The notes beneath the pieces were generated by a model. It saw nothing but the letters and a program-made list of their open reading frames with translations. It ran no database searches and was not told where the DNA came from. 64,000 nucleotides of DNA, from contig JBGUWS010000014.1 in the NCBI GenBank assembly GCA_045221335.1, positions 70,261-134,260 on the forward strand, read 5' to 3'. Below are positions 3,896 through 57,377 of this stretch, piece after piece. Source of the DNA: Alphaproteobacteria bacterium. Lineage in GTDB: Bacteria; Pseudomonadota; Alphaproteobacteria; RF32; CAG-239. Both the position numbers and the translations under genes were made by a program. How positions within the stretch are numbered: position 1 is the stretch's first letter; each line of letters opens with the position of its first letter.

Positions 3896-4375
3896 ATGGA
3901 TAATGAGCCTTGCTTAGGTTGCCGTATTGGCGATAAATGGCGCAGAAAACGCGGGTCTCTTATTATGGCTCTGCATGAAATTCAAGGAACAAAGGGTTAT
4001 GTTGATTGGAAAGATGCTATGGATTTAGCTCAAACAATGGAAGTCCCTTTAGCACGTATCTACGAAGTGTTAACGTTCTATAACTTTTTTAAGTTAGTTG
4101 CGCCTGGTAAGGCTGTTATCTCTGTTTGTACCGGTACGGCTTGTTTCTTAAAAGGAAATGATAAAGTCTTAGAAAAATTCAAATCAGAACTTAATATTAA
4201 AGAAGGTGAAAGTACACCTGATGGACTGTTTCACTTGCAGGTCGTACGTTGTGTCGGTTGCTGCGGTTTGGCTCCGGTTTGTGTTGTTAATGGTAAAACA
4301 TATGGTCGTATGACACCGGAACAAGTGCCTGAAATCCTAAATGAATGGCGCGAAGTATTTAAAGAGGAGGCTTAA
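3896..4375 (+). CDS. hydC: NADH-dependent [FeFe] hydrogenase small subunit, NuoE/HydC-like thioredoxin-fold [2Fe-2S] protein
   Basis: NuoE-family Cys pattern (CTGTAC...CVGCCGLAP), 159 aa, first gene of a three-gene cluster with NuoF-like and HydA genes. Confidence 0.8.
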   Translation: MDNEPCLGCRIGDKWRRKRGSLIMALHEIQGTKGYVDWKDAMDLAQTMEVPLARIYEVLTFYNFFKLVAPGKAVISVCTGTACFLKGNDKVLEKFKSELNIKEGESTPDGLFHLQVVRCVGCCGLAPVCVVNGKTYGRMTPEQVPEILNEWREVFKEEA

Positions 4376-4378: not shown

Positions 4379-6058
4379 ATGGTAGATATGGCTGAAATTA
4401 ATAAAAGGTTTGATATCCATAACATTGCAAACACAAAACGTGCGGAAATCGAAAAATATGAATGCAGTATTTTTTGCTGCCATTCCACAGCTTGCAAGTC
4501 CTCAGGTAGTGATGATCTGATTGCCTTAATCAGAAAAGTTTTAGAAGAAAATGGTCTAATCGATAAGGTTCGTGTTGTCACCACCGGTTGTATGGGACTT
4601 TGTGCGCATGGTCCACTCATCAGAGTTGAAATAAAAGGCAAAAAGGATATCTTATTTAAACGTGTTGATGCTGAAATTACGCGCACAATTATGGAAAAGT
4701 ATGTTATCCCCGGTATTCAAAGCAAAGAAGACATTGTATTAGATAAAAGTTTGGCAGAACACGTTCTTTCTCTTGACTTACCGTTTTTTACCAAGCAAGA
4801 AAAAGTGGTATTAAAAAATGCCGGACATATTGACCCAGAAGATATTACAGAATATATGGCAAGCGGCGGTTATTTAGCCTTAGAAAAAGCATTAAAAACC
4901 ATGACGCCGCAAGAGGTTGTCGAAGAAATCAAAAAATCCGGTTTACGCGGACGTGGTGGCGGTGGCTTCTCCACAGGTATGAAATGGGAACTGGCAGCCA
5001 AAGTGCCGACTGTCGATGAAAAGTTTATCATCTGTAATGGTGACGAAGGTGATCCGGGAGCCTACATGGATCGTTCTATCTTAGAGGGTGACCCGCATGC
5101 CGTGATTGAAGGCATGATGATTGCAGCATATGCTATCGGGGCAACATCCGGTTGGTTTTATGTCAGAGCAGAATACCCGCTGGCAGTTGAAAGAGTACAA
5201 AAAGCCATCCAAGCTTGTAAGAAGAACAGATTGTTGGGTAACAATATTATGGGTACTGATTTCTCATTTAATATTGATATCCGTTTAGGTGCAGGTGCTT
5301 TCGTTTGTGGTGAGGAAACAGCTCTTATCCATTCAATTGAAGGAATGAGAGGTACGCCTCGTCCCAGACCGCCATATCCGACCAACAAAGGTCTGTGGGA
5401 TAAACCATCCTGTGTAAATAATGTAGAAACACTGGCCAATGTGGCAAAGATTTTACTTAAAGGCGCAGACTGGTTCTCATCTTTTGGTACAGAAACATCA
5501 AAAGGAACAAAGGTATTTGCTTTAACCGGACAAGTTGAAAATTCCGGCTTGATTGAAGTACCAATGGGAACGACCATTGATGAAATTGTTAACGAAATCG
5601 GTGGTGGCGTATCAAAGGGAAAGACATTAAAGGCTGTCCAAACAGGGGGACCTTCAGGTGGCGTTATTCCTGCAAAGTATATGAATATGCCTGTTTGCTA
5701 TGAAGAGTTAAAGAAACTTGGCTCTATTATGGGATCCGGAGGTATGATTGTTATTGATGATTCATCAGACATGGTGGCTTTAGCAAAGTTTTATTTGGAT
5801 TTCACGGTTGATGAATCATGTGGCAAATGTTCACCATGTCGAATTGGCGGTAAACAAATGTTGCTTTTACTTGATAAAATCAATCGCGGACGTGGCAAGA
5901 AGAAAGATTTGGAACTCTTAAAAAAGATTGCTTTTGCCATGCAGAAAGCCTCACTTTGCGGCTTAGGACAAACAGCACCAAATCCTGTCTTATCAACGCT
6001 ACGTTTTTATGAAGAAGAGTACACAAATAAATTGCTTGATGGTCAAGAGAAGGAGTAA
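4379..6058 (+). CDS. hydB: NADH-dependent [FeFe] hydrogenase flavoprotein subunit, NuoF/HydB-like
   Basis: N-terminal [2Fe-2S] thioredoxin-like module, NuoF core with GRGGGGFSTGMKW (FMN/NADH site), SLCGLGQ, and C-terminal ferredoxin-type cysteines (CGKCSPCRIGG). Strong GAGGAGG RBS. Confidence 0.85.
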   Translation: MVDMAEINKRFDIHNIANTKRAEIEKYECSIFCCHSTACKSSGSDDLIALIRKVLEENGLIDKVRVVTTGCMGLCAHGPLIRVEIKGKKDILFKRVDAEITRTIMEKYVIPGIQSKEDIVLDKSLAEHVLSLDLPFFTKQEKVVLKNAGHIDPEDITEYMASGGYLALEKALKTMTPQEVVEEIKKSGLRGRGGGGFSTGMKWELAAKVPTVDEKFIICNGDEGDPGAYMDRSILEGDPHAVIEGMMIAAYAIGATSGWFYVRAEYPLAVERVQKAIQACKKNRLLGNNIMGTDFSFNIDIRLGAGAFVCGEETALIHSIEGMRGTPRPRPPYPTNKGLWDKPSCVNNVETLANVAKILLKGADWFSSFGTETSKGTKVFALTGQVENSGLIEVPMGTTIDEIVNEIGGGVSKGKTLKAVQTGGPSGGVIPAKYMNMPVCYEELKKLGSIMGSGGMIVIDDSSDMVALAKFYLDFTVDESCGKCSPCRIGGKQMLLLLDKINRGRGKKKDLELLKKIAFAMQKASLCGLGQTAPNPVLSTLRFYEEEYTNKLLDGQEKE

Positions 6059-6062
6059 TCAG

Positions 6063-7835
6063 ATGGTTAAATTAAAAATTGATAATATAGAAGTTGAAGT
6101 CAAAGCCGGTACGAGCATTTTAGATGCCGCAAGACTTGCACAAGTTAATATTCCAACTCTTTGCAAACACCCAGATGTTGATCCAAGCGCAGGTTGTGGT
6201 TTATGTATCGTTAAAGTTGGTGGGCGAATTATGCGTTCCTGTTGCACCCCAGTTTCAGAAGGAATGGAAGTTATTACTTCCGATGAAGAATTGATAGAAA
6301 TCAGGAGGACTGTGTTAAAACTGATATTGAGTAATCACCCTAACGATTGCTTAAATTGTTCCAGAAACAATCAATGCGAGTTGCAAGATATTACTGCGGA
6401 GATGAATATTAATCAAAACGAAGTTACCAAGTTGGTTTACATGGAAGCAAAAGATGATACCACCAAAGCAATTGTTTTTGATCCTACAAAATGTATTGTA
6501 TGTGGGAGATGTGTGAATATTTGTCAGAATGTTCAAAATGTTTGGGCATTGAGTTATCATCGCCGTGGCTTTTCAACCAAAATTACTGGATCTAATGATA
6601 CAAAGCTTGGTGATTCACCTTGTATCAGGTGTGGTCAGTGTGCGGCTCACTGTCCAACTGGAGCAATTGCCGATTATGATAATACTCAAAAAGTATCAGC
6701 TCTGATTAATAATAAGGAAAACGTTACGGTTGTTCAAATTGCACCGGCCGTACGTGTGGCTTTGGGCGAAGAATTCGGCTTTAAGTTCGGATCAAACTTA
6801 ACCGGAAAAATTTATGCCGCATTACGTCGTTTAGGTTTTTCTAAGGTGTTTGATACAAACTTTGGCGCGGATTTAACGATCATTGAAGAAGCAACAGAGT
6901 TTGTTAAACGCTTTACAACAAATGATCATTTGCCGATGTTTACTTCCTGCTGTCCGGCATGGGTAGATTATATTGAAAAATACTATCCTCAAAATCTGGA
7001 GAATTTATCTTCATGTAAATCTCCTCACCAGATGGTTGGCGCTATTGCCAAGACATATTGGGCAGAAAAAGCAGGTCTTGACGCCGCAAAAGTCAAGGTT
7101 GTTTCAGTTATGCCTTGTACTGCCAAAAAGTGGGAAATTGAGCGTGATGAAACCATGAGTTCCTCCGGTTATAAAGATGTGGATGAAGTTATTACCACGC
7201 GTGAATTAGCAAAGATGATTAAAGCATCCGGTATTGACTTTAAGAACTTAAAAGAAGAAGAAGCGGATAATCCTTTGGGAGAATACTCTGGTGCGGCCAC
7301 TATTTTTGGTGTAACCGGTGGTGTGATGACCGCAGCTTTAAGAACGGCATATTTTTATATTACTGGCGAAGAGCTTGGAGAACTGAACTTTAAGGATATA
7401 GAAGGTCTTGATGCCGTTAAAGTAGCAGAAGTTGATATAAAAGGAACCAAGGTTCGTATTGCCGTTGTCAATGGTGTTGGCAATGTTACCCCTGTTATGG
7501 AGGCCATTAACAAAGCAAAAGAAGAAGGCTCTGAGCTTCCTTACCACTTTGTTGAAGTGATGGCCTGTCCCGGCGGTTGTATTGCCGGTGGTGGACAGCC
7601 GCGGGTAATGGGTGTCGTATTTGATAAGCCTTGGGGAATCAATGATAAAATTCGTAAACTCCGTTCAAAAGGTTTGAATACAGAAGATGAAGAAGCTAAA
7701 AATCGCTTATCTCACAAAAATGAATCCATTAAGAAATTATATGCGGAGTATTTAGGTGAGGCTGGCGGTAAGAAGTCACACCATCTTTTGCATACGAAGT
7801 ACCACAAGCGTGACTTATATAAAAAAGAATCTTAA
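6063..7835 (+). CDS. hydA: [FeFe] hydrogenase catalytic subunit (H-cluster protein) with N-terminal 2Fe-2S and 4Fe-4S ferredoxin domains
   Basis: H-cluster motifs L1 TSCCPAW, L2 MPCTAKKWE, L3 EVMACPGGCIAGGGQP, plus 2Fe-2S and 2x[4Fe-4S] N-terminal modules. Start moved to 6063 (GGAG RBS, immediately after the hydB stop) rather than the ORF-track 6009. Confidence 0.85.
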   Translation: MVKLKIDNIEVEVKAGTSILDAARLAQVNIPTLCKHPDVDPSAGCGLCIVKVGGRIMRSCCTPVSEGMEVITSDEELIEIRRTVLKLILSNHPNDCLNCSRNNQCELQDITAEMNINQNEVTKLVYMEAKDDTTKAIVFDPTKCIVCGRCVNICQNVQNVWALSYHRRGFSTKITGSNDTKLGDSPCIRCGQCAAHCPTGAIADYDNTQKVSALINNKENVTVVQIAPAVRVALGEEFGFKFGSNLTGKIYAALRRLGFSKVFDTNFGADLTIIEEATEFVKRFTTNDHLPMFTSCCPAWVDYIEKYYPQNLENLSSCKSPHQMVGAIAKTYWAEKAGLDAAKVKVVSVMPCTAKKWEIERDETMSSSGYKDVDEVITTRELAKMIKASGIDFKNLKEEEADNPLGEYSGAATIFGVTGGVMTAALRTAYFYITGEELGELNFKDIEGLDAVKVAEVDIKGTKVRIAVVNGVGNVTPVMEAINKAKEEGSELPYHFVEVMACPGGCIAGGGQPRVMGVVFDKPWGINDKIRKLRSKGLNTEDEEAKNRLSHKNESIKKLYAEYLGEAGGKKSHHLLHTKYHKRDLYKKES

Positions 7836-7903: not shown

Positions 7904-8389
7904 ATGAAAAAAGTATTACTTTTGGTTTTGTTATTGACTGCTTGCACATATCAGCAAACGATTTCTTCATATCATAAAATTGATACTAATGCTCGGACAG
8001 TTGCCGTTGATAGCACTAACATGACAGATATACACTTTGATTTTAAACGAGCTTTAACAGAAGCAGGGTTTGAGATTTACAATAAAAATAATAACGGATA
8101 TGCCGCACGTTATGAGCTTTCCGATGATATTCATAAAGATGATAATGTCAGATGTGGTTTATGGGAAGAAGGCTATACTTATGAGATAACGTTTATTGAT
8201 AAAGTTAAAAAGGCTGAAGCTTTCGGTATACAAGGGCAAGGTTGTCGGGAAAATATCTTAAAAGATTTTACAGCGCTAATCAATAATCGCTACGATGAAA
8301 AGGAGAAAACGGTTGATAAACCTGAAAATAGTGATGCTATGAAAGTTCCAACTTTAAGATCTGATGGCAGAACCTGGTGGGGTAACTGA
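7904..8389 (+). CDS. Lipoprotein of unknown function
   Basis: Signal peptide with lipobox LLTAC; 161 aa. No recognisable domain. Confidence 0.5.
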   Translation: MKKVLLLVLLLTACTYQQTISSYHKIDTNARTVAVDSTNMTDIHFDFKRALTEAGFEIYNKNNNGYAARYELSDDIHKDDNVRCGLWEEGYTYEITFIDKVKKAEAFGIQGQGCRENILKDFTALINNRYDEKEKTVDKPENSDAMKVPTLRSDGRTWWGN

Positions 8390-8561
8390 GGTAGGTAAAT
8401 TTTCTATCCTTCCTCATTTTTTATTAAGGCTTATACTTAATAAAATTATTTCTTTATTTTCAAAGATTAAAACTTTTTTAAGTGCTATATTATATAAAAA
8501 CACTGGATTAATTTATCAAAAATGATTATAGAAATAAAAAGAACAAACGAAAGATGAATAT

Positions 8562-10034
8562 ATGAATACCCCAGAATTAGAAACAAAAAGATTAAAGCGA
8601 GAAGTTTTGGTACGTCTAGTCAAAGCTTTTCTTTCGGATAACTTTGCCGAAAATGCACGACTTATTCCTTATGATATGCGTCCAAAATATTCAGAAGTAC
8701 CTTTTCGGTGTTGTGTTTACAAAGAACGCGGAATTTTACGTGCTAGAACATTAGCAGGATTAGGTTTTTCCATTGAAGAAGATGATGAAAAGACAATGCT
8801 TTCACAATATGCCATAAAAGCATTAGAAAGATCTTGTCCTGATTCAAATCCCTTAACAGTAGTTGAAAGTGCTTGTCATAGCTGTCAGGCGTCAAGAGTC
8901 TACGTTACAGATTTATGTCAAAATTGTGTGGCCCGTCCATGCATGAATACGTGCCGTTTTGGTGCAATTTCTGTTATTAATGGTAAATCTGTGATTGATC
9001 CTCAAAAATGCAAAAAATGCGGCATGTGTATGTCTGTTTGTCCTTATGGAGCAATTATTAAAACTGTTGTTCCTTGTGAAAACTCGTGTCCAGTTGGTGC
9101 TATTGCTAAGGATGAGCGTGGTTTTGCGCGTATTGATAAGGAAAAATGTATCTCGTGTGGCAAGTGTGTGACGGCCTGTCCGTTTGGTGCAGTACATGCC
9201 AAATCTCAGATTATAGATGTATTAAAACATATCAAAGAAAAAAAAGAAGTAATCGCCCTAATTGCACCGGCTCTGATCGGACACCTCGCTTGTCAGCCGG
9301 AACAAATTAAAGACGCACTGCTCAAAATCGGATTTAGTGATGTATATGAAGTAGCTCAAGGAGCGGATGTAACAGCAACAACAGAGGCTAAAGATCTTGA
9401 AAAGAGGCTATCAGAAGGTAGTCCATTTATGACTACATCTTGTTGTGCGGCCTATAACGAGCTGGTTAAAAAACATCTCCCTGAGATCAAACCCTATGTC
9501 TCAGATACGCACACCCCTCTTTATTATACAGCAGAGATTGTTAAAAAACAGCACCCAAAAGCTATAACAGTATTTATCAGCCCTTGTTTTGCAAAACGTC
9601 GTGAAGTTTTAGATAATCCGAATGTTAATTATCTGATGAATTTTGAGGAATTAGGTGCTACATTGATTGCAATGGGTATAGAGATTGAAAATTGCAAAGA
9701 AAAAGAATTTTCATACCAAAGTTCAACGGAAGGTCGTGAATTTGCTCTTTCTGGAGGGGTTGCACGCTCTGTTCAAGCAGCATGGAATGGCAAAAAGGAT
9801 GCCATCAAACCTGTTATTATTAATGGGTTGGATAAATCGTCCATCCGTAACTTAAAAGCTTATGCCAATAGGAGTGCACATCCAGATGGTAATTTGATCG
9901 AAGTCATGAGTTGCTCTGGTGGATGCATTGCCGGAAATGCCTGTCCTGGACCAATCAGCGCAGCGCTAAAAAAAGTAAAAGACTATGGTGAAAAAGGACA
10001 ATCATTAGAAGAAAGAAAGGAAGATTGTAGATGA
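8562..10034 (+). CDS. [FeFe]-hydrogenase-like iron-sulfur protein (ferredoxin-fused HydA paralog with divergent H-cluster motifs)
   Basis: Four ferredoxin-type CxxCxxCxxxCP clusters followed by divergent H-cluster motifs TTSCCAAY, ISPCFAKRRE and EVMSCSGGCIAGNACPG; all four H-cluster Cys, the Lys and the Glu are retained. Its stop overlaps the adhE start (ATGA). Confidence 0.7.
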   Translation: MNTPELETKRLKREVLVRLVKAFLSDNFAENARLIPYDMRPKYSEVPFRCCVYKERGILRARTLAGLGFSIEEDDEKTMLSQYAIKALERSCPDSNPLTVVESACHSCQASRVYVTDLCQNCVARPCMNTCRFGAISVINGKSVIDPQKCKKCGMCMSVCPYGAIIKTVVPCENSCPVGAIAKDERGFARIDKEKCISCGKCVTACPFGAVHAKSQIIDVLKHIKEKKEVIALIAPALIGHLACQPEQIKDALLKIGFSDVYEVAQGADVTATTEAKDLEKRLSEGSPFMTTSCCAAYNELVKKHLPEIKPYVSDTHTPLYYTAEIVKKQHPKAITVFISPCFAKRREVLDNPNVNYLMNFEELGATLIAMGIEIENCKEKEFSYQSSTEGREFALSGGVARSVQAAWNGKKDAIKPVIINGLDKSSIRNLKAYANRSAHPDGNLIEVMSCSGGCIAGNACPGPISAALKKVKDYGEKGQSLEERKEDCR

Positions 10035-12625
10035 TAAAAGTACAAACACTAGAAGACTTAGATAAACTGATAGATCGTGTCCATATTGCACAAAATCAAT
10101 TTGCCACATTTTCAGAGGAAAAAGTTGATGCTATTTTTAAAGCAGCAGCCAAAGCAGCTAATAAAATGCGAATTGATTTGGCAGAAATGGCCGTTGAGGA
10201 AACGGGCATGGGCGTATTAGAAGATAAAATCATCAAAAATCATTTTGCCTCAGAATACATATATAACAAACATAAAGGCGTAAAAACGTGCGGTATAATC
10301 AGTAAAGATAAGACCAACGGTATCAAAGTCGTTGCAGCACCATTAGGTGTACTGGCAGGAATTGTTCCGACGACAAATCCGACCTCTACTGCAATTTTTA
10401 AATCTTTAATATGCTTAAAAACCAGAAATGGAATAATTTTTTCGCCCCACCCGAGAGCAAAAAAATCAACAGTAGCAGCGGCAAAAGTTGTATTGGATGC
10501 AGCAGTTAAAGCTGGCGCACCAAAAGACATAATTGGATGGATAGAAGAACCGTCAATAGAATTATCAAATGCCTTAATGACACATCCGAAAATTCAAGGA
10601 ATTCTAGCAACAGGTGGTCCTGGAATGGTAAAAGCGGCGTATTCAAGCGGTAAACCAGCTTTAGGTGTTGGCTCCGGAAATACACCGGCCATAATTGATG
10701 AAACCGCAGATATTAAATTAGCCGTATCTTCAATTTTAATGTCAAAAACATTCGATAATGGTATGATATGTGCATCAGAGCAATCAATAATAGTTGTGCA
10801 AGATGTCTATGAAGAGGTCAAAAAAGAGTTCATTTATCGCGGTGCCCATTTATTAAATCCGAAGGAGACGGAAGCATTAGGTAAAATCATACTAATTAAC
10901 GGTAGTGTTAATGCGAACATTGTTGGTCAACCAGCACATAAGATTGCATCCATTGCCGGATTCAAAGTTCCTGAAGAATCAAAAATTCTTTTGGCAGAAC
11001 AAACAGATTATAGTCCGAAAAATCCATATGCACATGAAAAACTTTCTCCGATTCTAACCATGTATAAGGCAAAAGATTTTGAATCTGCAACCGAAATAGC
11101 CTTAGCATTAGTAAATAACGGTGGGCTAGGGCACACATCTGTTTTATATACAGATAACAGAATACAGGATAGAATAGATTTTTATGCTAACAAAATGCCA
11201 ACCGGTCGTATTTTAATTAACTCTCCAGCTTCTCAAGGTGGTATTGGAGATTTATATAATTTTCGGTTAGAACCATCGTTAACTCTAGGTTGTGGTTCAT
11301 GGGGTGGCAATTCAGTAAGCGAAAATGTTGGTGTTAAACACCTATTAAACTATAAGACAGTGGCAGAAAGGAGAGAAAATATGTTATGGTTTAGAGTTCC
11401 TCCAAAAATTTATTTTAAGCGTGGATCTACAGAGTTAGCATTGCGTGAATATGAAAATAAAAAACGTGTCTTTATCATAACAGACAGATTCTTGTTTGAT
11501 TCAGGGGCCGTGCGGACGATTACTGACACATTTGAAGAAATGGATATAGACTATCAAATTTTCTTTGATGTTAAGCCTGACCCGACCATATCAACAGCAG
11601 AGCAAGCGTTTACTATGGTTAAAACCTATCAGCCGGATTTAATTGTGGCTTTAGGTGGTGGATCGCCAATGGACGTTGCTAAAATTATATGGTTAATGTA
11701 TGAACAGCCTGAAACAAATTTTGAAGATATTTCAATGAGATTTATGGATATCAGAAAACGTATTTGTTCCATTCCTGAATTAGGCAAAAAAGCAGATTTA
11801 GTTTGCATTCCGACAACATCCGGAACAGGCTCTGAAGTAACACCGTTTTCAGTCATAACAGATGATAAAACACATGTAAAATATGCAATTGCAGATTATG
11901 CCTTAACCCCAAAAATGGCGATTATAGATGCCAATTTTGTTGATGGCATGCCAAAATCTCTGACTGCAGCCGGAGGAATTGATGCATTAGTTCATGCTTT
12001 AGAAGCATATGTATCCGTTATGGCAACAAACTATACTAATTCTCTAGCTTTAGAAGCTATCAAACAAATTTTCCGTTATTTACCAGATTCTTATAAAGAT
12101 GGTGCTAACAATCCCAAAGCACGAGAGAAAATGCACAATGCAGCAACAATTGCCGGCATGGCCTTTGCAAATGCATTTTTAGGCCTATGTCACTCCATGG
12201 CTCACAAACTTGGTGCTATGTATAATATTCCTCATGGTATTGCAAATGCGCTGTTAATTTGTCAGATCATTCGCTTCAATGCAACGGATTGTCCTAAAAA
12301 ACAAGCTGCATTTCCACAATACAAAGCACCAGAGGCCAAAAAGCGTTATGGTCAGATTGCTCATGTTTTATATTTGGCCGATGAAGATGTTCCAGATGAT
12401 GAAAAAGTAAATCGTTTGATTAAGGCTGTTGCTCAATTAAAAGAACAAATAGGTATTCCGGCATCTATTCACGAATGGGGCATTGATGAAAAGACATTTA
12501 AGGATAATTTAGATGAACTTGTAAGATTAGCCTTTGATGATCAATGCACGGGTGCAAATCCGGTATATCCGTTAATGAGCGATATCAAACAAATTTACTT
12601 AGATGCCTATGAAGGTAAATACTAA
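10031..12625 (+). CDS. adhE: Bifunctional acetaldehyde-CoA/alcohol dehydrogenase
   Basis: 864 aa. N-terminal ALDH domain (catalytic Cys in ICASEQS) and C-terminal iron-containing ADH domain ([10 protein letters not shown]; His-rich metal site [14 protein letters not shown]). Confidence 0.9.
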
Positions 12626-13403: not shown

Positions 13404-16400
13404 ATGTGTAAGTATCGTCGTTCTGAAATAGGTTTGTTAAACAGAAGATATCGCAGTGTATTAAAAAAATGCCTGCTGATTAATTGCGGATTGCTCCTTG
13501 TTTCGTCTCCTGTACAAGCTGAAGTATTACCGGTTTTAGGCGATAGCAGTGTAGTTGAATATCAACTGGGTAGCGAAGATGATTACACGTTCAAACTTAT
13601 CGAAAATGGTGTCACCACGTATTATAAGATAAATATTTTAACCGACCTGCTGGATAGCAACCATATTTTGTGGGATAAGGTAGCATCCGCTGGTGAAAAT
13701 ACAATAGGTATAACTCTGCCGCATAATGGTACCGGCACAGAAACGATGTACTTAAAATACTCATATGATGGTAGTGAATGGGGAGCAAGTGTCAGTAACT
13801 TTAAGGATAATACAGTTAGAGCAGCAGCTACGGCTTCCTCTTATACACCCGATAATCCTTTTCCTTTAACTGGTATAACAGATACACAAAAGAAAGTCCT
13901 ATCAGGATTGTACACATATGATAATAAGGTTTACGAAGGAAACTATGTAACCCCGATTGTGCGTCAAAATAGAAGCGGTGGTACAATTTATGCTGCGTTG
14001 TATGGAACAGCACTAAGCAACGTAGTAAATCCAAATAATGAAACTGATTTACATAAAGATCTTGGTGATCTAACTGCTGATTTTATTAATAACTATGTGG
14101 ATGCGGTATCCACAAATTTATCAAGTACAGGTGCAGTTGTCAAGGTGGGTTCATCCTCTAATCTATACATATACGGTGGAGCAGCAGGTAACCCCGGTGC
14201 GATTACGGTGCCATCCGGCGGTGATTTAATAACATCTGATCCTAGTTCTATTCAAAGCTTAACAGGAGAATTTATTGGGAACTATATTACCGGAACGGCC
14301 ATTGTTGCAGATGATGATACAGCAACTTCATTACTGGGAGCTTATGGCGGAGCTCTGGGTAATAGAGGAATAATCGGAACCATTACCGGCTCTTTTATAA
14401 ATAACTACATTGATGTAACAGCAACCGGCGATGGAGCTACAGCCTATGGCTTTGGTGGTGCAGTTTATAACCATGGCACAATCACAACACTTAATGCCAA
14501 TTTCTTATCAAATTATGCAGATCATGGTGGTGCAATTTATAATGATGGAGAAATCACCACCTTATCAGGTAATTTTATTGGTAATAGGGCAACCAACGGA
14601 AATGGTGGCGCAATACATGGTGCCGGCTTTGAAAACATTAATGGTGACTTTATTTCAAATGAAGCCAATGGTAATGGCGGTGCTATCAGTGTAGAGGCTG
14701 AAAACGGCGGGATAATAGAAAATCTACGCGGAGAATTTATAGCCAATCAGGCACTCGATGGTAATGGTGGCGCTTTGTTTATCGGTAATCAATCCGGTGT
14801 TGAACAAGTAACAGGTAATTTTATTGGCAATATAGCAAACTCGGATGGTGGTGCTATCTATATAGAAGACACAGACGAAGCAACGAACATTGTTGCTGAT
14901 ACAGCAGATGTTCTGTTTAGTAATAATACAGCTAATGACAGATATAATGATATCTATCTAAAAGATGTTGAAAATTTCGGATTAAACGCAGCATCAAACC
15001 ATACCATTACATTTAATGGTACAATCGAAGGCGAGACCACTTCAGATACTGTTTTTGCCAATATCAATAGAGGTTCATCAAATACCGGTGGAACTTACGC
15101 TTTTAATAACGAAGTTTCAGGTTTAGGACTGCGTGTTTACAATGGTGCACAAATTAAATTAGGTGTTCATGAGCAGTCAGATGGGACAACAACCGATGGA
15201 TATCTCAATTTGGAAAGTTTTGAAAATGATGCCCAAGGCGGTGAAATCGATGCTATAAACGGAGTATACCGCACGCAGATTTTGGGTAGCAATGTGAAAT
15301 TATTATCAGACTTGGATTATAAAATTGATATTTTAGTTGAAAATAATCTGGTAACCATTTCTGATATGATACAAATTGCATCAACAGACCAGGATTCCGT
15401 TGGTTCCATCAATTTGACAGATATTTTATTTGCCGGTGCATCAGAGGGTGAAGCACTTTATTTTGAAGGCAAGAAACAGATTATCAATAATACCGGTAGC
15501 AATGCTGTTACGCTAAAATTAGCTCAAGAATACACGGCCACAGCTGAAAGCCTTGTAACCGATAAGCTATCTATTGATTCTAAGGATATAAATTGGGATA
15601 CAGGTGTTTATCTCTATGATGAAAGGACTGTAGATTCTAAAAAGTTGGTAGCTGTCGAAGGAGAAAGCGGAATTGTTGACAGCATTGAATGGGTAGACAA
15701 TGGTTCCTTAAGCCCGACAGAAGAAAATATCCGCAATTATGATGCCTTAGTATTCTTGCATCAGACGGATATGTTTGGTACCAATGAAAAGACATTCACG
15801 GATAATTCAACCGGAACCTATAACTTAACAGAAAATCTTGGAGAAACTTATGGCTCTCTATCTGTTATAGGACAAGGTGCAGATGCATCAACATTGAATA
15901 TGAACGGTCATCAAGGTTTTGAAATTGGTGACGGGGCAACCGTAAAATTAGACGGTATATCGGTTAATAGTAATAAAGCCGTGACCTTAGCAGAAGTATC
16001 TGAAGGCGGCTTGCTAAAATTGAATAATGTAGAAATTGCAAGCCCGAAACTGTTTATAACCAATGATGAAAATTTAGAACTAAGCGGTTCTAATACACTT
16101 AATGGTATGATAGATGGTGAGGGAACAACAACAGTTACCGGCGGAGAAACAACCCTAAATGCAGATATCATTCAAGATAATTTGATTATTGCTGACGGTA
16201 CATTAATAACCAATGCAGATAATCTGGAAATTGCTAATGATATTCAAAATGACGGAACATTAACACTAACCGGTGGTAATTTAAGTCAAGGTGTTACCAA
16301 AGCAACAACCGGTGAAGGTGAAGTAACATTAGAAAATAATGTTGTTTTAGCTAATGGTGGTTCTATTTCTGATAATAAATTGGATCTCAAAGATCATAAA

Positions 16401-18824
16401 TTAAGTGTAGAAAACACCGGTGATAATGTACTGGATCTATCCGAATTCAAAAATGAAGCAGGAGCAGAGTTAGATACACAAAACGGTGCCACCCAAAACT
16501 TAAATTTAGGCCAAGCTCTGATTGATAATTTGGAATATGCCTTAGATGTTGATTTAAGTGGTGACGGTACCGCTGATACTTTAACGGTTGCGGATAATTC
16601 AAGCGGAACAGTTAAAATAACATCATTAAATTTCCTCAATCCAACAGCTCCGAATAAGGAATTTGAGATTAATGTTATCAATGGTAGCGGTGTAACTTTA
16701 GAGTTAGATAGAGCTATTACCGCATCTATGTATGCTATCGGAACAACTAGCGAAAGCAAAGCAGATACAATTGCTGCAAATACCTTGTATAATCCGGAAG
16801 GTAATTACTTTGAATATGTAAGACAAGGAGATGTTTTAGGTAAAATAGACTTAACCGAGGATCAGACTGGTATTAAATTAGAAGCAAATGATGTGATCTG
16901 GGGAACATGGGAAAAAGGTGATCCTCTTGGCGATACTATGATGCTTGTCAATACGGATGAAACAAATAGTGTCAAAACCTTCAATTTTGCTACACCTGAT
17001 GATAATTATCAGATCAGCGATAACTTAGGAGCAACAAAAGGTGATTTGGCTGTCAATGGTGTCTCATCAGATAACGGTAAGTCAACTTTAGATTTAAATG
17101 GCCATAGCGGATTTGAGGTAGATGAAAACGCAAGTTTGACTATCCGCAATACCAATGTTATTGGTCAAAATGCCATTGTTTCAAGCGGAGAAGTTACATT
17201 AGATAACACAGATGTTGAAACAGTCACCAACGATGGTACCTTAAATATTGCCAATAATACCACATTTGATGAAATCAGCGGTACTGGAGAAACAAACATC
17301 ACTTCTGATTTGGATTTAGGTGATGGTAAAATATCAGGTAATACGGTCAATGCCACGAATGGTACGGTTAAAGTTGGCAGCAATAATTTGGATCAAGATG
17401 TTGTGCTCAATGCTAAAAATGGTTCAACAATCGAGATTGCAAACAACACTGTTAACATAAAAGAAGCTAATTTTGATCAAGGCTCTGCTTTATCACTTAA
17501 AGTTAATAGTTTAAGTGACTACGGTTCACTTATTGCTAACACAATTAATGTTGAACAAAATGCAACATTAAAAGCAACATTAGCACAAGGGTTGATGGAA
17601 GAAGGGCAGGAGGCAACAATTCAATTGCTCGTTGCAGACAACGATGACTTTAACAACTTTACCGATCAGTTTGAAAACAATATGTATAGTTTTGAAAAAG
17701 ATGGTACCAATGGTGCATATAAAGTAAGAAAAATCAAGACAGCTGATGATGTTGCTAAAGAATATGGAGGAACAAGGACCAATCAAGAAGCAGCAAAGGC
17801 CTACATTGAAGGCGATAGATTTCCTGATGGAGCATCAGGTGAAATTGCCGATGGTCTTGCTGATCTCGCTCAAAATGATGCCAAAGGTTTGTTAAAAGCC
17901 CTAACAGCACTGGCCCCTAATGATTCTCCAGTGTTACAAGGTGTTGTCAGCTATCAGGATGATATCCTGTTTCGTACAGTAGCTCAGCATTTACGTCAGG
18001 CTAAGGATGATAATGTACTGTTACAGAGCTTAACGGATGGATTGTCCTTATGGGTTCGTACATATATGGGAACATCTAAATTAAATGATCATGCCGGTAT
18101 CTATGGATTTGATATGGATAGCAAAGGTATTATCGCTGCGCTTGAAAAGAAGTTGACATCAGTGCTTAAAGCCGGTTTAGGTTATCATTATGATAAGGCA
18201 GATGTAAGCGCTTACTCTCGTGATGTTGATGTTGAGATGAATAAAATATTTGCCTATGCAGAATATAAACCAAGCCAGTTATTTATGCACGCAACAGCAG
18301 GCTACGGCATGTCAGATTATAAAGAAGATAAAATGGCATTAGGTAACACCTATAAAGCTAAGTATGACGTTGATACATTTTCAATGCAAGCTTTAGTTGG
18401 TTACGAACAGGATTACATAACCCCTGAAGCAGGATTAAGATATTATCACATCAAGCGTCGCGGATATAATGATAGCGCAATGCAAAAAGTATCTTCTAAG
18501 GATATGAATGTCTTAGCCGCAGTGGCTGGTTTAAGGGCCGGCAAGGATTATACATTGCCGTCAGGCTACACATTAAGACCGGAAGCTTATATCGGTGTTG
18601 TATATGATATAGTCAGCGATCGTGACAATGCAATTGTAAACTTGGCAAATGGTTCAAGTTATATGGTACATGGTCAAAACTTAAACAAATTTGGTGTAGA
18701 ACTTGGTGCCGGCTTAACAGCAAAATTAATGGATAGTTTATCATTAAATGTCAGCTACATGGGTGGCTTCCGTAGAGATTACAGAAATCATACTGGTATG
18801 ATTGGCTTAAGGTACGACTTCTAA
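13404..18824 (+). CDS. Type Va autotransporter (1806 aa) with Pmp/POMP-repeat beta-helical passenger and C-terminal beta-barrel translocator
   Basis: Signal peptide. Repeated FxxN / GGA[IL] motifs (FIGNRATNGNGGAIHG, FISNEANGNGGAISV, FIANQALDGNGGALFI). C-terminal ~280 aa with autotransporter beta-domain character ending in aromatic ...GLRYDF. Confidence 0.85.
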   Translation: MCKYRRSEIGLLNRRYRSVLKKCLLINCGLLLVSSPVQAEVLPVLGDSSVVEYQLGSEDDYTFKLIENGVTTYYKINILTDLLDSNHILWDKVASAGENTIGITLPHNGTGTETMYLKYSYDGSEWGASVSNFKDNTVRAAATASSYTPDNPFPLTGITDTQKKVLSGLYTYDNKVYEGNYVTPIVRQNRSGGTIYAALYGTALSNVVNPNNETDLHKDLGDLTADFINNYVDAVSTNLSSTGAVVKVGSSSNLYIYGGAAGNPGAITVPSGGDLITSDPSSIQSLTGEFIGNYITGTAIVADDDTATSLLGAYGGALGNRGIIGTITGSFINNYIDVTATGDGATAYGFGGAVYNHGTITTLNANFLSNYADHGGAIYNDGEITTLSGNFIGNRATNGNGGAIHGAGFENINGDFISNEANGNGGAISVEAENGGIIENLRGEFIANQALDGNGGALFIGNQSGVEQVTGNFIGNIANSDGGAIYIEDTDEATNIVADTADVLFSNNTANDRYNDIYLKDVENFGLNAASNHTITFNGTIEGETTSDTVFANINRGSSNTGGTYAFNNEVSGLGLRVYNGAQIKLGVHEQSDGTTTDGYLNLESFENDAQGGEIDAINGVYRTQILGSNVKLLSDLDYKIDILVENNLVTISDMIQIASTDQDSVGSINLTDILFAGASEGEALYFEGKKQIINNTGSNAVTLKLAQEYTATAESLVTDKLSIDSKDINWDTGVYLYDERTVDSKKLVAVEGESGIVDSIEWVDNGSLSPTEENIRNYDALVFLHQTDMFGTNEKTFTDNSTGTYNLTENLGETYGSLSVIGQGADASTLNMNGHQGFEIGDGATVKLDGISVNSNKAVTLAEVSEGGLLKLNNVEIASPKLFITNDENLELSGSNTLNGMIDGEGTTTVTGGETTLNADIIQDNLIIADGTLITNADNLEIANDIQNDGTLTLTGGNLSQGVTKATTGEGEVTLENNVVLANGGSISDNKLDLKDHKLSVENTGDNVLDLSEFKNEAGAELDTQNGATQNLNLGQALIDNLEYALDVDLSGDGTADTLTVADNSSGTVKITSLNFLNPTAPNKEFEINVINGSGVTLELDRAITASMYAIGTTSESKADTIAANTLYNPEGNYFEYVRQGDVLGKIDLTEDQTGIKLEANDVIWGTWEKGDPLGDTMMLVNTDETNSVKTFNFATPDDNYQISDNLGATKGDLAVNGVSSDNGKSTLDLNGHSGFEVDENASLTIRNTNVIGQNAIVSSGEVTLDNTDVETVTNDGTLNIANNTTFDEISGTGETNITSDLDLGDGKISGNTVNATNGTVKVGSNNLDQDVVLNAKNGSTIEIANNTVNIKEANFDQGSALSLKVNSLSDYGSLIANTINVEQNATLKATLAQGLMEEGQEATIQLLVADNDDFNNFTDQFENNMYSFEKDGTNGAYKVRKIKTADDVAKEYGGTRTNQEAAKAYIEGDRFPDGASGEIADGLADLAQNDAKGLLKALTALAPNDSPVLQGVVSYQDDILFRTVAQHLRQAKDDNVLLQSLTDGLSLWVRTYMGTSKLNDHAGIYGFDMDSKGIIAALEKKLTSVLKAGLGYHYDKADVSAYSRDVDVEMNKIFAYAEYKPSQLFMHATAGYGMSDYKEDKMALGNTYKAKYDVDTFSMQALVGYEQDYITPEAGLRYYHIKRRGYNDSAMQKVSSKDMNVLAAVAGLRAGKDYTLPSGYTLRPEAYIGVVYDIVSDRDNAIVNLANGSSYMVHGQNLNKFGVELGAGLTAKLMDSLSLNVSYMGGFRRDYRNHTGMIGLRYDF

Positions 18825-27261: not shown

Positions 27262-27579
27262 ATGGATAATGAGAATAAGGGACTTAAAATAGAACAAACA
27301 AGAGAAGGTTATATGTTAACATGCAAGTTGACAGGATGGCTTGATCCGAATACTTCTCCTGATTTAGTATCAAAGTTAGACTTAAAGGATATAAATATAC
27401 TGGTTTTTGATATGAAAGATGTTGAATACGTGTTTTCATCAGGTATTCGTGCATTTTTAATGTTGCAAAAGATGTTGGAACCTGTCAATGGAACAGTCAA
27501 ATTAATCAACATTTCGGATGATATCCGTAATATTTTTGAATATGCCGGTTTAGAAAGTATGTTAGACATTAAAGCATGA
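27262..27579 (+). CDS. STAS-domain anti-sigma-factor antagonist (HsbA/RsbV/SpoIIAA-like)
   Basis: STAS fold with the conserved phospho-serine context VFSSGIRAFL. ATG at 27262 chosen (GAAAGGG RBS); the ORF track begins at TTG 27229. Its stop overlaps the next gene's start (ATGA). Confidence 0.7.
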   Translation: MDNENKGLKIEQTREGYMLTCKLTGWLDPNTSPDLVSKLDLKDINILVFDMKDVEYVFSSGIRAFLMLQKMLEPVNGTVKLINISDDIRNIFEYAGLESMLDIKA

Positions 27580-29933
27580 TGAAATCTTTCAAATTTTGGA
27601 TAAGTAAACACTCTCTCAAATTTAAGCTAAACGCTGGTATTTTAACATTTATCTGTGTAGCTTTTTTGAGCTTGGCTATATTTATTTCAAAATATTCGGC
27701 ACCAATTCTTAAAGCTCAATTAGATGATAATGCTCAAAAGTCAATTGAAACTTATGTGGCAGATTTTACCCATTTGACTGTGCTGGCAGAACGAGTGATA
27801 TTAAACACAAAAAACACACTCAGTCAGATGTCTGAAGATAATATTAATGCCATCAGGATGCTGTTAAATTCCGCCATAAAAACAGTTATTCATACGGATT
27901 TAGATTTTACGAATGCCTGGCTGTATGTTTTTAATCCTGAAGATGTATCTTCCGGGGATTTATATATCAGTACAGATTATGATGAAGATAATGTCATCGA
28001 CTTTAATGTGGAACATATTAGTAATCTATATGACAGATTTCCATGGTTTAAGGAAGTTCCCAAAAAAGAAGATATTTATTGGTCTGAACCATACTTAGAT
28101 ACCAAAACAAATAAAACGGTTTTTACATGTCTCATACCATTTAAGTTTATCAAACAGACAGATTTTAACGGATTGCTTGCTCTAACAATTGACTTAACTG
28201 ATATCCAAGAAAGTATTAATAATTTCTCATTTTATGAAACCGGAAAATTGATTTTGCTATCAAGAACCGGGTTATACGTAACTTATCCGGATCCTGATGT
28301 GGCCCTGAAACTAACTATTTTTGAATTGGCTGATAAACTTAACGAACCAAAATTAAATTTTATCGGTCAAGAACTTTTAGCCGGACGCGGTGGTCAGGTT
28401 ATCCTTCCAAAGGTTCCCGTTTTCAAAAACTCTCCGGCGGTTTTCTTCTATGCGCCGATAAAAAACTTAGGTTGGGGTTTTGGGCTTGTATATGCTCAAC
28501 ATGAATTTCTAAAGCCGATAAGGCAATTTCAAATCATTATTGCTATTGCTTTACTGGTGAGTGTGCTCTTGTTGATGCTGTTGATCAATTGGATTTGTCA
28601 TTATTCTACCAAACAATTGCTGACACTAAGTCATATTGCTGCACAATATGGTCGTGGAAATTTTGCGCAGAATTTTAAGTTCATACCGGATTCATCTGAT
28701 ATAGGAACTCTTGCTAAGGCGTTATCAAACATGCGGACAAACTTGCTTAATTACCTTGATAAAGAAAGGAAAGCCGCCTCAGAGGAACAAAAAAATCAAA
28801 GTGAATTAGATATTGCAAGACACATTCAAAAATCAGCTTTATCGACAACATATCCAGAAAATTCCGCCTTTAAGATTGCTACCACCATGATACCTGCCAG
28901 ACAAGTTGGGGGAGATTTTTATGATTTCTTCTTTGTTGATGAAAACAAATTTGCGATTGTCATTGCAGATGTCTCCGGCAAAGGAATACCTGCCGCATTA
29001 TATATGATGAAAGCCATTACACTAATAAAAAACATGAGCCGAAGTAAGCGGAGCTTAGATTTTATATTTCAATGTATTAACGAGCAGCTGTGTGAAGGAA
29101 ACGATACCTGCATGTTCGTAACAGCTTTTATGGCATTTATAGATTTGACAAATGGCGAAACAACATATGTTAATGCCGGTCACAATCCGCCGCTTATAGG
29201 TAATAAAGATGGCTATAAATTTATGACCCCAAAAAAGAACATTGTTTTGGGTATTAACCCTAAGGCGACTTTTGTAGAAGAAAAAATCAATTTAAGATTA
29301 GGTGATCATCTGTTTTTATACACCGATGGAGTAACGGAAGCCGAAAATAAATCTTGCAAATTTTATGGGGAAAATCGATTATTAAAAATTTTTGATAAAG
29401 CACATGATAAACCTCAAGATAATATTAATATGGTCCTAAAAAGTATTCAAAAATTTGTAAAAGAAAATCCTCAATCAGATGATATTACCATGCTTGATTT
29501 TGCTTTCTTCGGGCAAAAAGAAAATTTGCTAGAAATCGTCGCCACGATGAATAAATTAGGAAAAGTAGTAACTTGGCTGAAAAATGATATGATTAAACAT
29601 AATGTTTCTGCTAAAGCGCAATTTAATATGATAATGGCCGCTGAAGAAATATTCTCAAATATAGTGTTTTATGCATACCCCAAAAATGAAGAGGGAACTG
29701 TTAAAATTAAAACAGAGCTGAATGATAATATATATTCAGCAACTTTTATGGATAATGGAAAGAAATATAATCCGCTAAAAAATAAAGCTCCGGATACAAA
29801 GGCTGACATAAAAGACAGAAGTATTGGTGGATTAGGCGTGTTCTTAGCTAAGAAAGTTTCAGATACAATAACATATGCATACAAAGATGGATATAATATC
29901 CTAAAGATTGGTGTATATGCCGATAAAAAATGA
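27576..29933 (+). CDS. Membrane sensor: periplasmic Cache-like domain, HAMP, PP2C (SpoIIE/RsbU-type) phosphatase and C-terminal RsbW-type HATPase_c kinase (HsbR-like bifunctional partner-switch enzyme)
   Basis: Two TM helices flank a ~280-aa extracytoplasmic domain. PP2C motifs GGDFYDFFFVDENKFAIVIADVSGKGIPAALYM and YTDGVTEA. C-terminal anti-sigma-kinase-like ATPase (NMIMAAEEIFSNIV..., GGLGVFLAKK). Confidence 0.7.
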   Translation: MMKSFKFWISKHSLKFKLNAGILTFICVAFLSLAIFISKYSAPILKAQLDDNAQKSIETYVADFTHLTVLAERVILNTKNTLSQMSEDNINAIRMLLNSAIKTVIHTDLDFTNAWLYVFNPEDVSSGDLYISTDYDEDNVIDFNVEHISNLYDRFPWFKEVPKKEDIYWSEPYLDTKTNKTVFTCLIPFKFIKQTDFNGLLALTIDLTDIQESINNFSFYETGKLILLSRTGLYVTYPDPDVALKLTIFELADKLNEPKLNFIGQELLAGRGGQVILPKVPVFKNSPAVFFYAPIKNLGWGFGLVYAQHEFLKPIRQFQIIIAIALLVSVLLLMLLINWICHYSTKQLLTLSHIAAQYGRGNFAQNFKFIPDSSDIGTLAKALSNMRTNLLNYLDKERKAASEEQKNQSELDIARHIQKSALSTTYPENSAFKIATTMIPARQVGGDFYDFFFVDENKFAIVIADVSGKGIPAALYMMKAITLIKNMSRSKRSLDFIFQCINEQLCEGNDTCMFVTAFMAFIDLTNGETTYVNAGHNPPLIGNKDGYKFMTPKKNIVLGINPKATFVEEKINLRLGDHLFLYTDGVTEAENKSCKFYGENRLLKIFDKAHDKPQDNINMVLKSIQKFVKENPQSDDITMLDFAFFGQKENLLEIVATMNKLGKVVTWLKNDMIKHNVSAKAQFNMIMAAEEIFSNIVFYAYPKNEEGTVKIKTELNDNIYSATFMDNGKKYNPLKNKAPDTKADIKDRSIGGLGVFLAKKVSDTITYAYKDGYNILKIGVYADKK

Positions 29934-54571: not shown

Positions 54572-54806
54572 ATATTAGCAATAATTTTGGAGTGACTAAA
54601 ATCAAAGGCTAATTTAACTTTTATTTTTCGATAATAGAAGTTTTTCTTCCCTGTATAAGCGATTTTGGTTTTGACATAGGTTTGATTATAAAAGATAGAT
54701 TCGGTTATTATAGGGTAATTTTTGATAAGTTAATAATCGTATGAATTTATTATTTCTAAACTATTGGTGTTTTATTATATCGTAGTTTAATGGAGTGATT
54801 TATCTT

Positions 54807-55919
54807 ATGAAACCAGATATACAAAAAATATTTAGCCAATATGGAATAACCAATAAAATGCATAACGATGCATATGATTGGCAGAAAAAATATTGGGAAA
54901 TTAGTAATGAGATAAGTGGTAAGAATGAATGGGAGGACATTTGTATTGGATTTTTCGCTTATATTACACTATGGACGTTAATATTGTTTGGTTTAGCATT
55001 TCTTGATGATAAATCAAATATTTCTCAAGACTTGCTTGCTTTCCTTATTATTGTAGTTTTATTAAATATATTTTTCTACTTAATGGGAAAGCAAGAAAAT
55101 AAGAAAAAAGAAGAATATAAACATAAAATAGAAAGCCATAAATTAGAAAAAGTTCACCATTCTGAATATGAATACAAAGAACAGAAACTAGCAAGCGATT
55201 ATGAAACTGAATTAAAAAATCTTCAAAGTAAAATATTTAGAAAAAGAGTTAGTGAAACATTTAAGGATAATTTACAAAAATATAATGATTTCATAGATAC
55301 CTGTAGTTATATAAACCATTATCTTGTATTTGCTCACATAAATACTTATGAACATAGAGAATACGCTAAAAAACGAGGTTATTCTCTTGTTACAAATAAT
55401 TATTCTTCTTTAAGTAAAAAAATACTTCCTAAAATTGAAGAAGATTATTCTTCATCTAAGCCTATAGAAAGCAAAAGTATTAAAAGTAAATTTAATCCTC
55501 AAAAAATAGATTGGCTTGAACTTAATAAATCTAATGCCAAATTAGGAGAATATGGGGAAAGCATAATTATAGATTTGGAAAAGGAATATCTGATAGAAAA
55601 CGGATTAAAAGATTTATCTGAAAAAATAGAATGGGTATCACAGACCAAAGGGGACGGAGCAGGATATGATATTTTATCATATGATACAGGCGGAAATTGT
55701 AAATATATAGAAGTTAAAACTACATGTGTGTCGGAAAACGAACCTTTTTATGTAAGTGATAATGAATTGAATTTTATTAAAACACATTTGGATAATTATT
55801 TTATATATCGTTTGTATATCGATAAAAATTCCAATACAGTAAAATTGAGAGTATTTAATTCAAGCGAATTTTTAAACTTTGCTCTTCGTCCTGTATCGTA
55901 TAAAGTTATTTTAAATTAA
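54807..55919 (+). CDS. Membrane-anchored protein with C-terminal DUF3883-like PD-(D/E)xK nuclease domain
   Basis: Two N-terminal TM helices, a K/E-rich coiled-coil linker, and a C-terminal ~130 aa with LGEYGESI, GYDILSYD, IEVKTT and SDNELNFIK. These match, as I recall it, the DUF3883 restriction-endonuclease-like consensus (D...E-V-K). Start moved to ATG 54807 (GGAG RBS). Confidence 0.55.
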   Translation: MKPDIQKIFSQYGITNKMHNDAYDWQKKYWEISNEISGKNEWEDICIGFFAYITLWTLILFGLAFLDDKSNISQDLLAFLIIVVLLNIFFYLMGKQENKKKEEYKHKIESHKLEKVHHSEYEYKEQKLASDYETELKNLQSKIFRKRVSETFKDNLQKYNDFIDTCSYINHYLVFAHINTYEHREYAKKRGYSLVTNNYSSLSKKILPKIEEDYSSSKPIESKSIKSKFNPQKIDWLELNKSNAKLGEYGESIIIDLEKEYLIENGLKDLSEKIEWVSQTKGDGAGYDILSYDTGGNCKYIEVKTTCVSENEPFYVSDNELNFIKTHLDNYFIYRLYIDKNSNTVKLRVFNSSEFLNFALRPVSYKVILN

Positions 55920-56183
55920 CAAATAAAATTTTAGTGCTGTAATCTATAACTCCTTGATTTTCTTATCTTCTCATCCTAAAAAGTTCGAAGATTATTTGGG
56001 GTATGGCTTATTTTATATCAAACATTCGAACTCGCCGAAAGCTATTCCGCATCCGGAAAAGATTTCCAAAGTAACGCATAAACCACTAGAGGTGCCCTTT
56101 GTATATCCCTTAGTATTTGCGCGACTAAATTTGAGATAAGCTTATCTAACACTAGTGTTATTATTGTGTCGGCTCCATACTTT

Positions 56184-56203: not shown

Positions 56204-56295
56204 TGAAAAAAATGTCAATATTCGGGAAATTTTACTTGCTTTTTCGGGAATTATTCGGTAATATTTCGGTAAAGAATAGAGAAAAGGAACATAAA

Positions 56296-57354: not shown

Positions 57355-57377
57355 AACCTATCGATTCTTTTTTTTCT

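Follow-up and report, generated by a model that had tools for sequence, protein, structure and literature searches.

The window analysed here, a stretch of 64,000 nucleotides (nt) from contig JBGUWS010000014.1 of an alphaproteobacterial assembly (GCA_045221335.1), contains directly in front of adhE a gene for a 490-amino acid (aa) protein that is assigned, as judged from its sequence, to the catalytic, ferredoxin-linked and H2-evolving group B [FeFe]-hydrogenases of the HfsD/CpIII/Bacteroides HydM type. By gene order, the hydrogenase gene and adhE constitute a conserved operon pair within a clade of gut and rumen Alphaproteobacteria, in which the exact overlap of the two reading frames appears as an incidental feature. 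The pair probably represents a co-regulated redox-balancing module, through which ferredoxin electrons would leave the cell as H2 and NADH electrons as ethanol.

Assignment of the 490-aa protein to the group B [FeFe]-hydrogenases

The 490-aa protein matches the profile of monomeric [FeFe]-hydrogenases TIGR04105 (FeFe_hydrog_B1) with 509.9 bits at a cut-off of 450, and does so over its full length (residues 7–461 on profile positions 4–458 of 462), while group A models stay far under their cut-offs (133 vs 406 and 103 vs 765). PF02906 is found with an E-value of 1e-49, and the chain is divided into a Cys-rich N-terminal domain (residues ~100–215) and an H-domain (228–458). The nearest database relatives (100–56% identity) belong to uncultured Alphaproteobacteria of gut and rumen as well as to Gastranaerophilales (Melainabacteria). 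Those that carry a name are labelled as monomeric or group B1/B3 [FeFe] hydrogenases, including one JGI relative annotated as '[FeFe] hydrogenase (group B1/B3)'.

Conservation was assessed in an alignment of 81 sequences comprising the window protein and its relatives. All four H-cluster cysteines that had already been recognized in a sequence-only reading of the window (C295, C342, C451 and C455) are conserved in 81 of 81 sequences, as is the proton-relay cysteine C294. The same reading regarded the motifs TTSCCAAY (291–298), SPCFAKRRE (340–348) and EVMSCSGGCIAGNACPG (447–463) as divergent and the protein as merely hydrogenase-like. This view does not hold, since the protein passes the TIGR04105 cut-off, has a complete proton pathway and shares its motifs with its family: TTSCCA[A/G]Y, SPC[F/V]AK[R/K]xE and E[V/I]MxCxGGC[I/L][A/G]GN are invariant or nearly so, with K345 and E348 present in every sequence and M449 in 80 of 81. 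On this alignment, the alleged divergence is the signature of a family of its own that differs from the group A enzymes. The group A HydA encoded in the window displays the canonical forms TSCCPAW, MPCTAKK and EVMACPGGC. When the CpI proton pathway (C299/E279/S319/E282/R286) was mapped by alignment to this HydA, the equivalents E275, S314, D/E278 (D278 in the window) and R282 proved to be conserved in 81 of 81 sequences.

Only two canonical CxxCxxCxxxCP motifs (C150–C160 and C196–C206) can be found in the N-terminal part, yet 18 cysteines in this region are invariant in all aligned sequences. This number would suffice to ligate four accessory [4Fe-4S] clusters, as had been proposed from the sequence before, and four accessory iron–sulfur (Fe-S) clusters have been modelled for the group B enzyme of Bacteroides (B. 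fragilis; PMC12578642). An AlphaFold2 model (mean pLDDT 78, low confidence at residues ~40–53 and 105–112) matches the folds of CbA5H, the HydA subunit of HydABC, DdH and CpI among the solved [FeFe]-hydrogenases. Neither the sequence search nor the fold search retrieved a solved group B structure, the best matches being group A enzymes. It is thus the passed TIGR04105 cut-off, the invariant motifs, the 18 cysteines and the retained proton-relay residues that lead to the assignment as a catalytic group B enzyme. Characterized members of this group are active hydrogenases: CpIII is active, TsHfsD is the main H2 producer of its own organism (PMC8924675), and the Bacteroides group B enzymes actively produce H2, coupled to ferredoxin that is reduced by pyruvate:ferredoxin oxidoreductase (PFOR; PMC12578642).

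The adhE product is a standard bifunctional enzyme. It matches NF010378 with 1379 bits (cut-off 951) from residue 3 to 863, i.e. over its full length including both domains, and is composed of Aldedh, Fe-ADH and ADH_Fe_C without any extra Fe-S or docking domain. What we take to be the catalytic-Cys motif of the aldehyde dehydrogenase domain and the His motif of the Fe-ADH domain are present in the translation.

Conservation of the hydrogenase–adhE pairing

In the window, the ATG of adhE (10031–10033) overlaps the TGA of the hydrogenase gene (10032–10034) within the sequence gtagATGAtaa, so that the 4-nt ATGA overlap described in the sequence-only reading is indeed present. Since this is the commonest overlap type in bacterial operons, it is unremarkable by itself. 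More telling is the comparison with related loci (designated L001 to L083), for which one genome per species (80 loci) and three metagenomic contigs were surveyed by tblastn with the window proteins, and adjacency was counted in loci with at least 1.5 kb of downstream sequence. All 14 loci of the alphaproteobacterial clade that includes the window (67–83% identity) have adhE directly downstream of the group B gene, as do 2 of the 57 other loci, which mostly belong to Melainabacteria (56–64% identity). Three further non-alphaproteobacterial loci have adhE upstream (L059, L061 and L066), just one of them with at least 1.5 kb of downstream sequence. The expectation that the pairing would be conserved in relatives was therefore correct for the clade of the window but not beyond it. 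Likewise, the placement among ordinary monomeric hydrogenases with no AdhE association, which had been named beforehand as speaking against a special connection, applies by halves: the protein clusters with such hydrogenases, but its association with AdhE is real within its own clade.

The junction between the two genes ranges from −11 to +27 nt among the 14 alphaproteobacterial loci. Six of them show an overlap (−4 in the window, L001 and L002; −8 to −11 in L003, L004 and L006), while the other eight have a gap (+2 in L005 and +10 to +27 in the remaining loci). At each of the 13 related junctions, adhE is preceded by a GAAAGG/AGGAA ribosome-binding element. With such variable junctions, neither obligatory co-translation nor a dedicated physical partnership of the two proteins is indicated.

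The two loci with downstream adhE outside the clade, L053 (RUG13696) and L058 (RUG13580), belong to uncultured non-alphaproteobacterial rumen bacteria and display an identical six-gene order including adhE. Their AdhE proteins are 71% and their hydrogenases 60% identical to those of the window, which suggests either lateral transfer of the entire module or an independent capture of adhE.

The larger operon of the relatives and its apparent remnant in the window

A core of five genes is common to nearly all related loci of both phyla, in the order 76-aa thioredoxin-like 2Fe-2S protein, HydS, PP2C, 85-aa thioredoxin-like 2Fe-2S protein and group B hydrogenase. HydS is encoded by a separate gene of 570 aa and comprises Fe_hyd_lg_C, PF04060 and PAS_9 domains (L001), with a motif SSACP in which the relay cysteine is lost. 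Its gene is followed by that of a SpoIIE/PP2C phosphatase, and HydS-type and PP2C/SpoIIE genes are located directly 5' of the group B gene in ~60 of 83 related loci. The 85-aa thioredoxin-like [2Fe-2S] gene stands directly 5' of the group B gene in ~65 of 83 loci, often overlapping the hydrogenase start (e.g. L081:7747–8004, L082:219–476 and L006:4783–5040), and is missing from the window and from L001. Its product could serve the group B hydrogenase as an overlooked small subunit or as a partner in electron transfer.

In the adhE-linked operons, adhE is often followed by a rex gene (L003–L007, L010, L011 and L078). Moreover, these operons are headed by a Rex-box-like palindrome, for example TTGTGAAAAAAATCACAA (L006:4712–4729), that lies ~255 nt 5' of HydS, just 3' of a TTGACA −35 element and ~25–55 nt 5' of the first gene. 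It was found in 9 of 12 alphaproteobacterial loci as well as in L053 and L058 (sites at L006:4685–4729, L078:2592–2609, L003:2598, L004:2597, L010:2605, L081:4606, and L058:2172 and 2244), and in none of seven Melainabacteria loci without adhE. This suggests that the hydS–group B hydrogenase–adhE operons of the relatives are autoregulated and respond to NADH.

The window lacks the genes for the 76-aa 2Fe-2S protein, HydS, PP2C and the 85-aa 2Fe-2S protein, together with the Rex box and rex. When the window was searched by tblastn with HydS and PP2C from L001, nothing but the two catalytic hydrogenases was retrieved, and no PP2C gene lies in the vicinity of the locus. In the relevant intergenic regions, no match to TTGTGAAN4TTCACAA with up to three mismatches was obtained, with a window-wide count below chance expectation, and the spacer in front of the group B gene (8390–8561) contains no Rex-like site with up to four mismatches. 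An hfsABCD-type arrangement, i.e. PAS-hydrogenase and PP2C genes directly upstream, is hence not found here. Instead, ~3.4 kb of the relatives (L081:4520–8001, L083:4490–8001; 82–83% identical) are replaced by this spacer. Because the four upstream genes are gone while a lipoprotein-like gene that also follows hydA in L081 (L081:4031–4516, 67% identical) is retained, the window locus looks like a ~3.4-kb deletion derivative in which the flanking lipoprotein gene and the hydrogenase–adhE pair were kept. L006 is an independent sensor-less variant in which only HydS–PP2C was lost, whereas the 85-aa gene, rex and a Rex box are still present.

At three near-invariant columns, the window hydrogenase deviates from its relatives (F279L, E281K and C440H; nt ~9396–9404 and 9879–9881), these positions being otherwise kept in at least 79 of 81 sequences. 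E281K occurs in the window only and adjoins R282 of the proton-exit pathway. A decay of the protein following the loss of the sensor gene was considered and rejected, as these are just three such deviations, no more than in the relatives.

Comparison with known systems

Experiments in other organisms have already connected hydrogenases of this kind functionally with the formation of ethanol (PMC6776011, PMC5707799, PMC11837493). The closest counterpart in terms of logic is an eight-gene cluster of Ruminococcus albus 7, which combines the ferredoxin-only hydrogenase HydA2 and AdhE with the sensory HydS, a phosphatase and other regulators, and which is down 111-fold when a partner organism removes H2, while the bifurcating HydABC stays on at low H2 and carries the acetate mode (PMC6776011). 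As in R. albus, a predicted ferredoxin-only hydrogenase and AdhE are encoded next to each other on one strand of the window in addition to a separate HydABC, a layout that fits the alternation between a high-H2 ethanol mode and a low-H2 acetate mode (PMC6776011). However, the R. albus hydrogenase belongs to group A1 instead of group B, and its cluster retains the sensor and regulators that are missing from the window.

A second parallel is provided by hfsABCD from Thermoanaerobacterium saccharolyticum and T. thermosaccharolyticum. HfsD is a ferredoxin-linked group B enzyme, to which that of the window is likened by its family assignment. The hfsA-B-C-D order is mirrored in the relatives of the window by the small Fe-S protein, PAS-hydrogenase, PP2C and group B hydrogenase (PMC5707799, PMC8924675). 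In Thermoanaerobacterium, hfs is genetically linked to adhE expression and ethanol yield: deletion of hfsA or hfsB increases adhE expression (PMC5707799), and in T. saccharolyticum a predicted Rex site lies ahead of adhE and another ahead of hfsABCD (PMC5886521). There, adhE resides at a separate locus (Tsac_0416 vs Tsac_1550; PMC5886521), whereas it is part of the operon in the window, which in turn is devoid of hfsA/B/C equivalents and stems from an alphaproteobacterium rather than a Firmicute. Finally, Bacteroides HydM and Clostridium pasteurianum CpIII are likened to the window enzyme by membership in a family that is characterized by an H-cluster with four accessory clusters, demonstrated production of H2 and a coupling to PFOR and ferredoxin (PMC12578642, PMC8924675). 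Unlike in the window, no adhE linkage of Bacteroides HydM is reported in the text of PMC12578642.

Proposed role and alternative explanations

The sequences directly show the family membership, the conservation of catalytic residues and gene adjacency, and the sensor and Rex elements of the relatives. We infer from them which donor supplies the electrons, in which direction the enzyme works, that the genes are co-transcribed and how a physiological switch would operate. Reduced ferredoxin, arising mainly from PFOR, would donate electrons to the group B hydrogenase, whose accessory [4Fe-4S] clusters would relay them to the H-cluster for release as H2. AdhE would re-oxidise glycolytic NADH by converting acetyl-CoA into ethanol. 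The hydrogenase and AdhE would be transcribed and translated together as complementary outlets of one fermentation mode. At low H2, NADH and ferredoxin would be jointly oxidised by HydABC. At high H2, AdhE would channel NADH into ethanol, and the group B enzyme would channel ferredoxin electrons into H2. The latter mode would be needed once the neighbouring HydABC is no longer able to dispose of NADH as H2. The link between the two enzymes would hence consist in co-regulation within one operon and not in a physical or electron-transfer partnership. In the relatives, the operon would be controlled by the H2 sensor (HydS–PP2C) and a Rex-box promoter, while only the two enzymes would remain in the window, preceded by an upstream region that is new.

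Several observations weigh against this role. Most group B genes of the sister (Melainabacteria) lineages are not located beside adhE, and 54 of the 57 loci outside the alphaproteobacterial clade have no adjacent adhE; the association is therefore best regarded as lineage-specific and not as a property of the group B family. With no terminator or clear −35/−10 promoter found to bound the operon, transcription may read through from hydCBA into the hydrogenase–adhE pair. No rex gene lies in the 64-kb window, and no genes for PFOR, ferredoxin or the hydEFG maturase were detected there by a Pfam scan of open reading frames (ORFs) of at least 150 aa, so that both the electron donor and the maturation of the hydrogenase by HydE/F/G are assumed. 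Given the missing sensor and Rex elements, the H2-dependent switch may not operate in this organism. Finally, the host belongs to a lineage known only from uncultured metagenome-assembled genomes.

An alternative to plain co-regulation is hydrogen cycling, in which the group B enzyme would make H2 from ferredoxin and HydABC, running in the reverse of the confurcating direction, would re-consume it to supply AdhE with NADH. The two hydrogenases would then jointly act as a ferredoxin:NAD+ oxidoreductase in a near-homoethanol fermentation, and the hydCBA…group B gene–adhE layout would be a natural form of what was deduced from engineered Thermoanaerobacterium. In T. thermosaccharolyticum and T. 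saccharolyticum, both hfsD and hydAB are required for high ethanol yield, and of the hfs operon hfsD by itself is sufficient. H2 cycling was put forward to explain this (PMC11837493, PMC12288451), although as a hypothesis. The configuration of the window is sensor-less, with an hfsD-type but no hfsB-type gene, as in the ethanologen phenotype, and hydABC lies directly upstream of the hydrogenase–adhE unit in the window, L001, L081 and L083. This adjacency varies, however: the upstream sequence of the operon yielded no HydABC homologue in L002–L005, L007, L010 and L078, and in L009 hydABC is inverted and downstream of the operon. While the sequence does not separate hydrogen cycling from simple co-regulation, we consider cycling rather improbable. 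Similarly doubtful is an evolutionary extension of this scheme, according to which an hfs-type H2-sensing operon captured adhE and rex in Alphaproteobacteria of gut and rumen as well as in some few further bacteria of the rumen that are likewise uncultured. This would have united H2 sensing (HydS–PP2C), NADH sensing (Rex box and rex) and both electron sinks in one unit, of which the window would be a stripped derivative that constitutively runs the HfsD and HydABC 'hydrogen-cycling' route to ethanol.

A physical partnership, in which the hydrogenase would be assembled co-translationally with AdhE through the ATGA overlap and supply aldehyde/alcohol reduction with electrons taken from H2 or ferredoxin, appears very unlikely. 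It is favoured by the tight adjacency in 14 of 14 clade members, six of them with overlapping genes. Moreover, group B enzymes have four Fe-S clusters, two of which have been described as 'off-pathway' (PMC12578642) and could serve another partner. Nevertheless, eight of the 14 junctions are gapped instead of overlapping, and AdhE itself is a standard enzyme that depends on NAD(H). In 54 of 57 other genomes, this hydrogenase clade functions with no adhE beside its gene, and no residues specific to adhE-linked hydrogenases were noticed, a systematic comparison not having been made. Beyond adjacency, nothing supports a complex of the two proteins. Least credible of all, and contradicted by the sequence, is a function of the 490-aa protein in sensing redox state or H2 and regulating adhE instead of a metabolic one, although the sequence-only reading had also considered redox sensing. 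Hydrogenase-like sensors that affect adhE expression do exist (HfsB/HydS; PMC5707799), but sensory [FeFe]-hydrogenases belong to group C, which features a PAS domain and lacks the relay cysteine (PMC8924675). The window protein has neither a PAS nor an output domain in Pfam and retains TTSCC with Cys294 and the proton pathway, and the true sensor of the relatives is the separate group C protein with the SSACP motif and PAS_9 that is encoded in the same operon.

Layout of the locus and other features of the window

As had been noted before, the pair follows the HydABC operon, with 727 nt between the end of hydCBA and the start of the 490-aa gene that are occupied by a lipoprotein-like ORF and an AT-rich spacer (Table 1). 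The ORF had no Pfam or NCBIfam match. Neither the spacer nor the 170-aa ORF downstream showed similarity to related loci. An extended −10 element (TGcTATATT, 8483–8491), read by hand in the spacer, is a possible candidate, and a promoter/terminator scan revealed no convincing sigma-70 promoter or intrinsic terminator bounding the hydrogenase–adhE pair. The mechanically called hydA ORF begins at 6009 and runs over the end of hydB (6058). Since the NF040763 alignment starts from residue 20, the true start is probably M18, with the ATG at 6060 (MVKLKIDN...).

Table 1. Features of the hydrogenase–adhE locus in window coordinates.
Feature	Coordinates	Strand	Size and evidence
hydC, NuoE-like thioredoxin-type [2Fe-2S] subunit of HydABC-type hydrogenase	3896..4375	+	PF01257 E 5e-46; NuoE/HoxE-family matches
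hydB, NuoF-like flavin mononucleotide (FMN)/NAD(H)-binding subunit, HydABC-type	4379..6058	+	Complex1_51K, NADH_4Fe-4S, SLBB; TIGR01959 E 3e-141
hydA, group A [FeFe]-hydrogenase catalytic subunit (probable start)	6060..7835	+	NF040763 783.9 bits (cut-off 765); Fe_hyd_lg_C + Fe_hyd_SSU
Lipoprotein-like ORF, signal peptide with Cys (LLTAC)	7904..8389	+	161 aa; between hydA and the 490-aa gene
AT-rich spacer 5' of the group B hydrogenase gene	8390..8561	+	172 nt; sequence
Predicted group B (HfsD/CpIII/HydM-type) monomeric [FeFe]-hydrogenase gene	8562..10034	+	490 aa; TIGR04105, PF02906
Shine-Dalgarno-like AAGGAAG for adhE	10017..10023	+	7 nt 5' of the ATG, within the last hydrogenase codons
adhE, bifunctional acetaldehyde-CoA/alcohol dehydrogenase	10031..12625	+	864 aa; NF010378

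Elsewhere in the window, three very large ORFs are found at 13404–18824 (1806 aa), 32966–38428 (1820 aa) and 39432–50438 (3668 aa), the first of which, inspected by eye, shows passenger-like repeats rich in Gly and Asn and, towards its C terminus, a part that resembles an autotransporter barrel. A 785-aa protein encoded at 27576–29933 combines dCache, SpoIIE (PP2C) and HATPase_c_2 domains and is unrelated to the missing hfsC-like phosphatase. The region 54795–61499 harbors genes for a NOV_C-domain protein, a Fic/DOC protein, a type I restriction R subunit and a truncated N6-methylase fragment. This cluster adjoins a tRNA-Gln gene (61425–61499) and is possibly a defence or mobile island.

Implications

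The group B family, the hfs-type operon and the clustering of ferredoxin hydrogenase with AdhE have all been published before, and no new enzyme or mechanism is revealed here. Our literature searches yielded no description of a direct group B–adhE(–rex) operon in gut and rumen Alphaproteobacteria, nor of its sporadic occurrence in L053 and L058 or of the sensor-less derivative in the window. In the human gut, H2 production has recently been found to be dominated by group B [FeFe]-hydrogenases, and it is known for few organisms how they are wired to the remaining fermentation. For one uncultured lineage of gut and rumen Alphaproteobacteria, the conserved operon points to a regulation of H2 release and ethanol formation as one unit. 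It would thereby support the H2-dependent acetate/ethanol switch of R. albus and extend it to another phylum and another hydrogenase group, and the sensor-less version in the window could be a natural comparison for engineered hfsB-deletion ethanologens.

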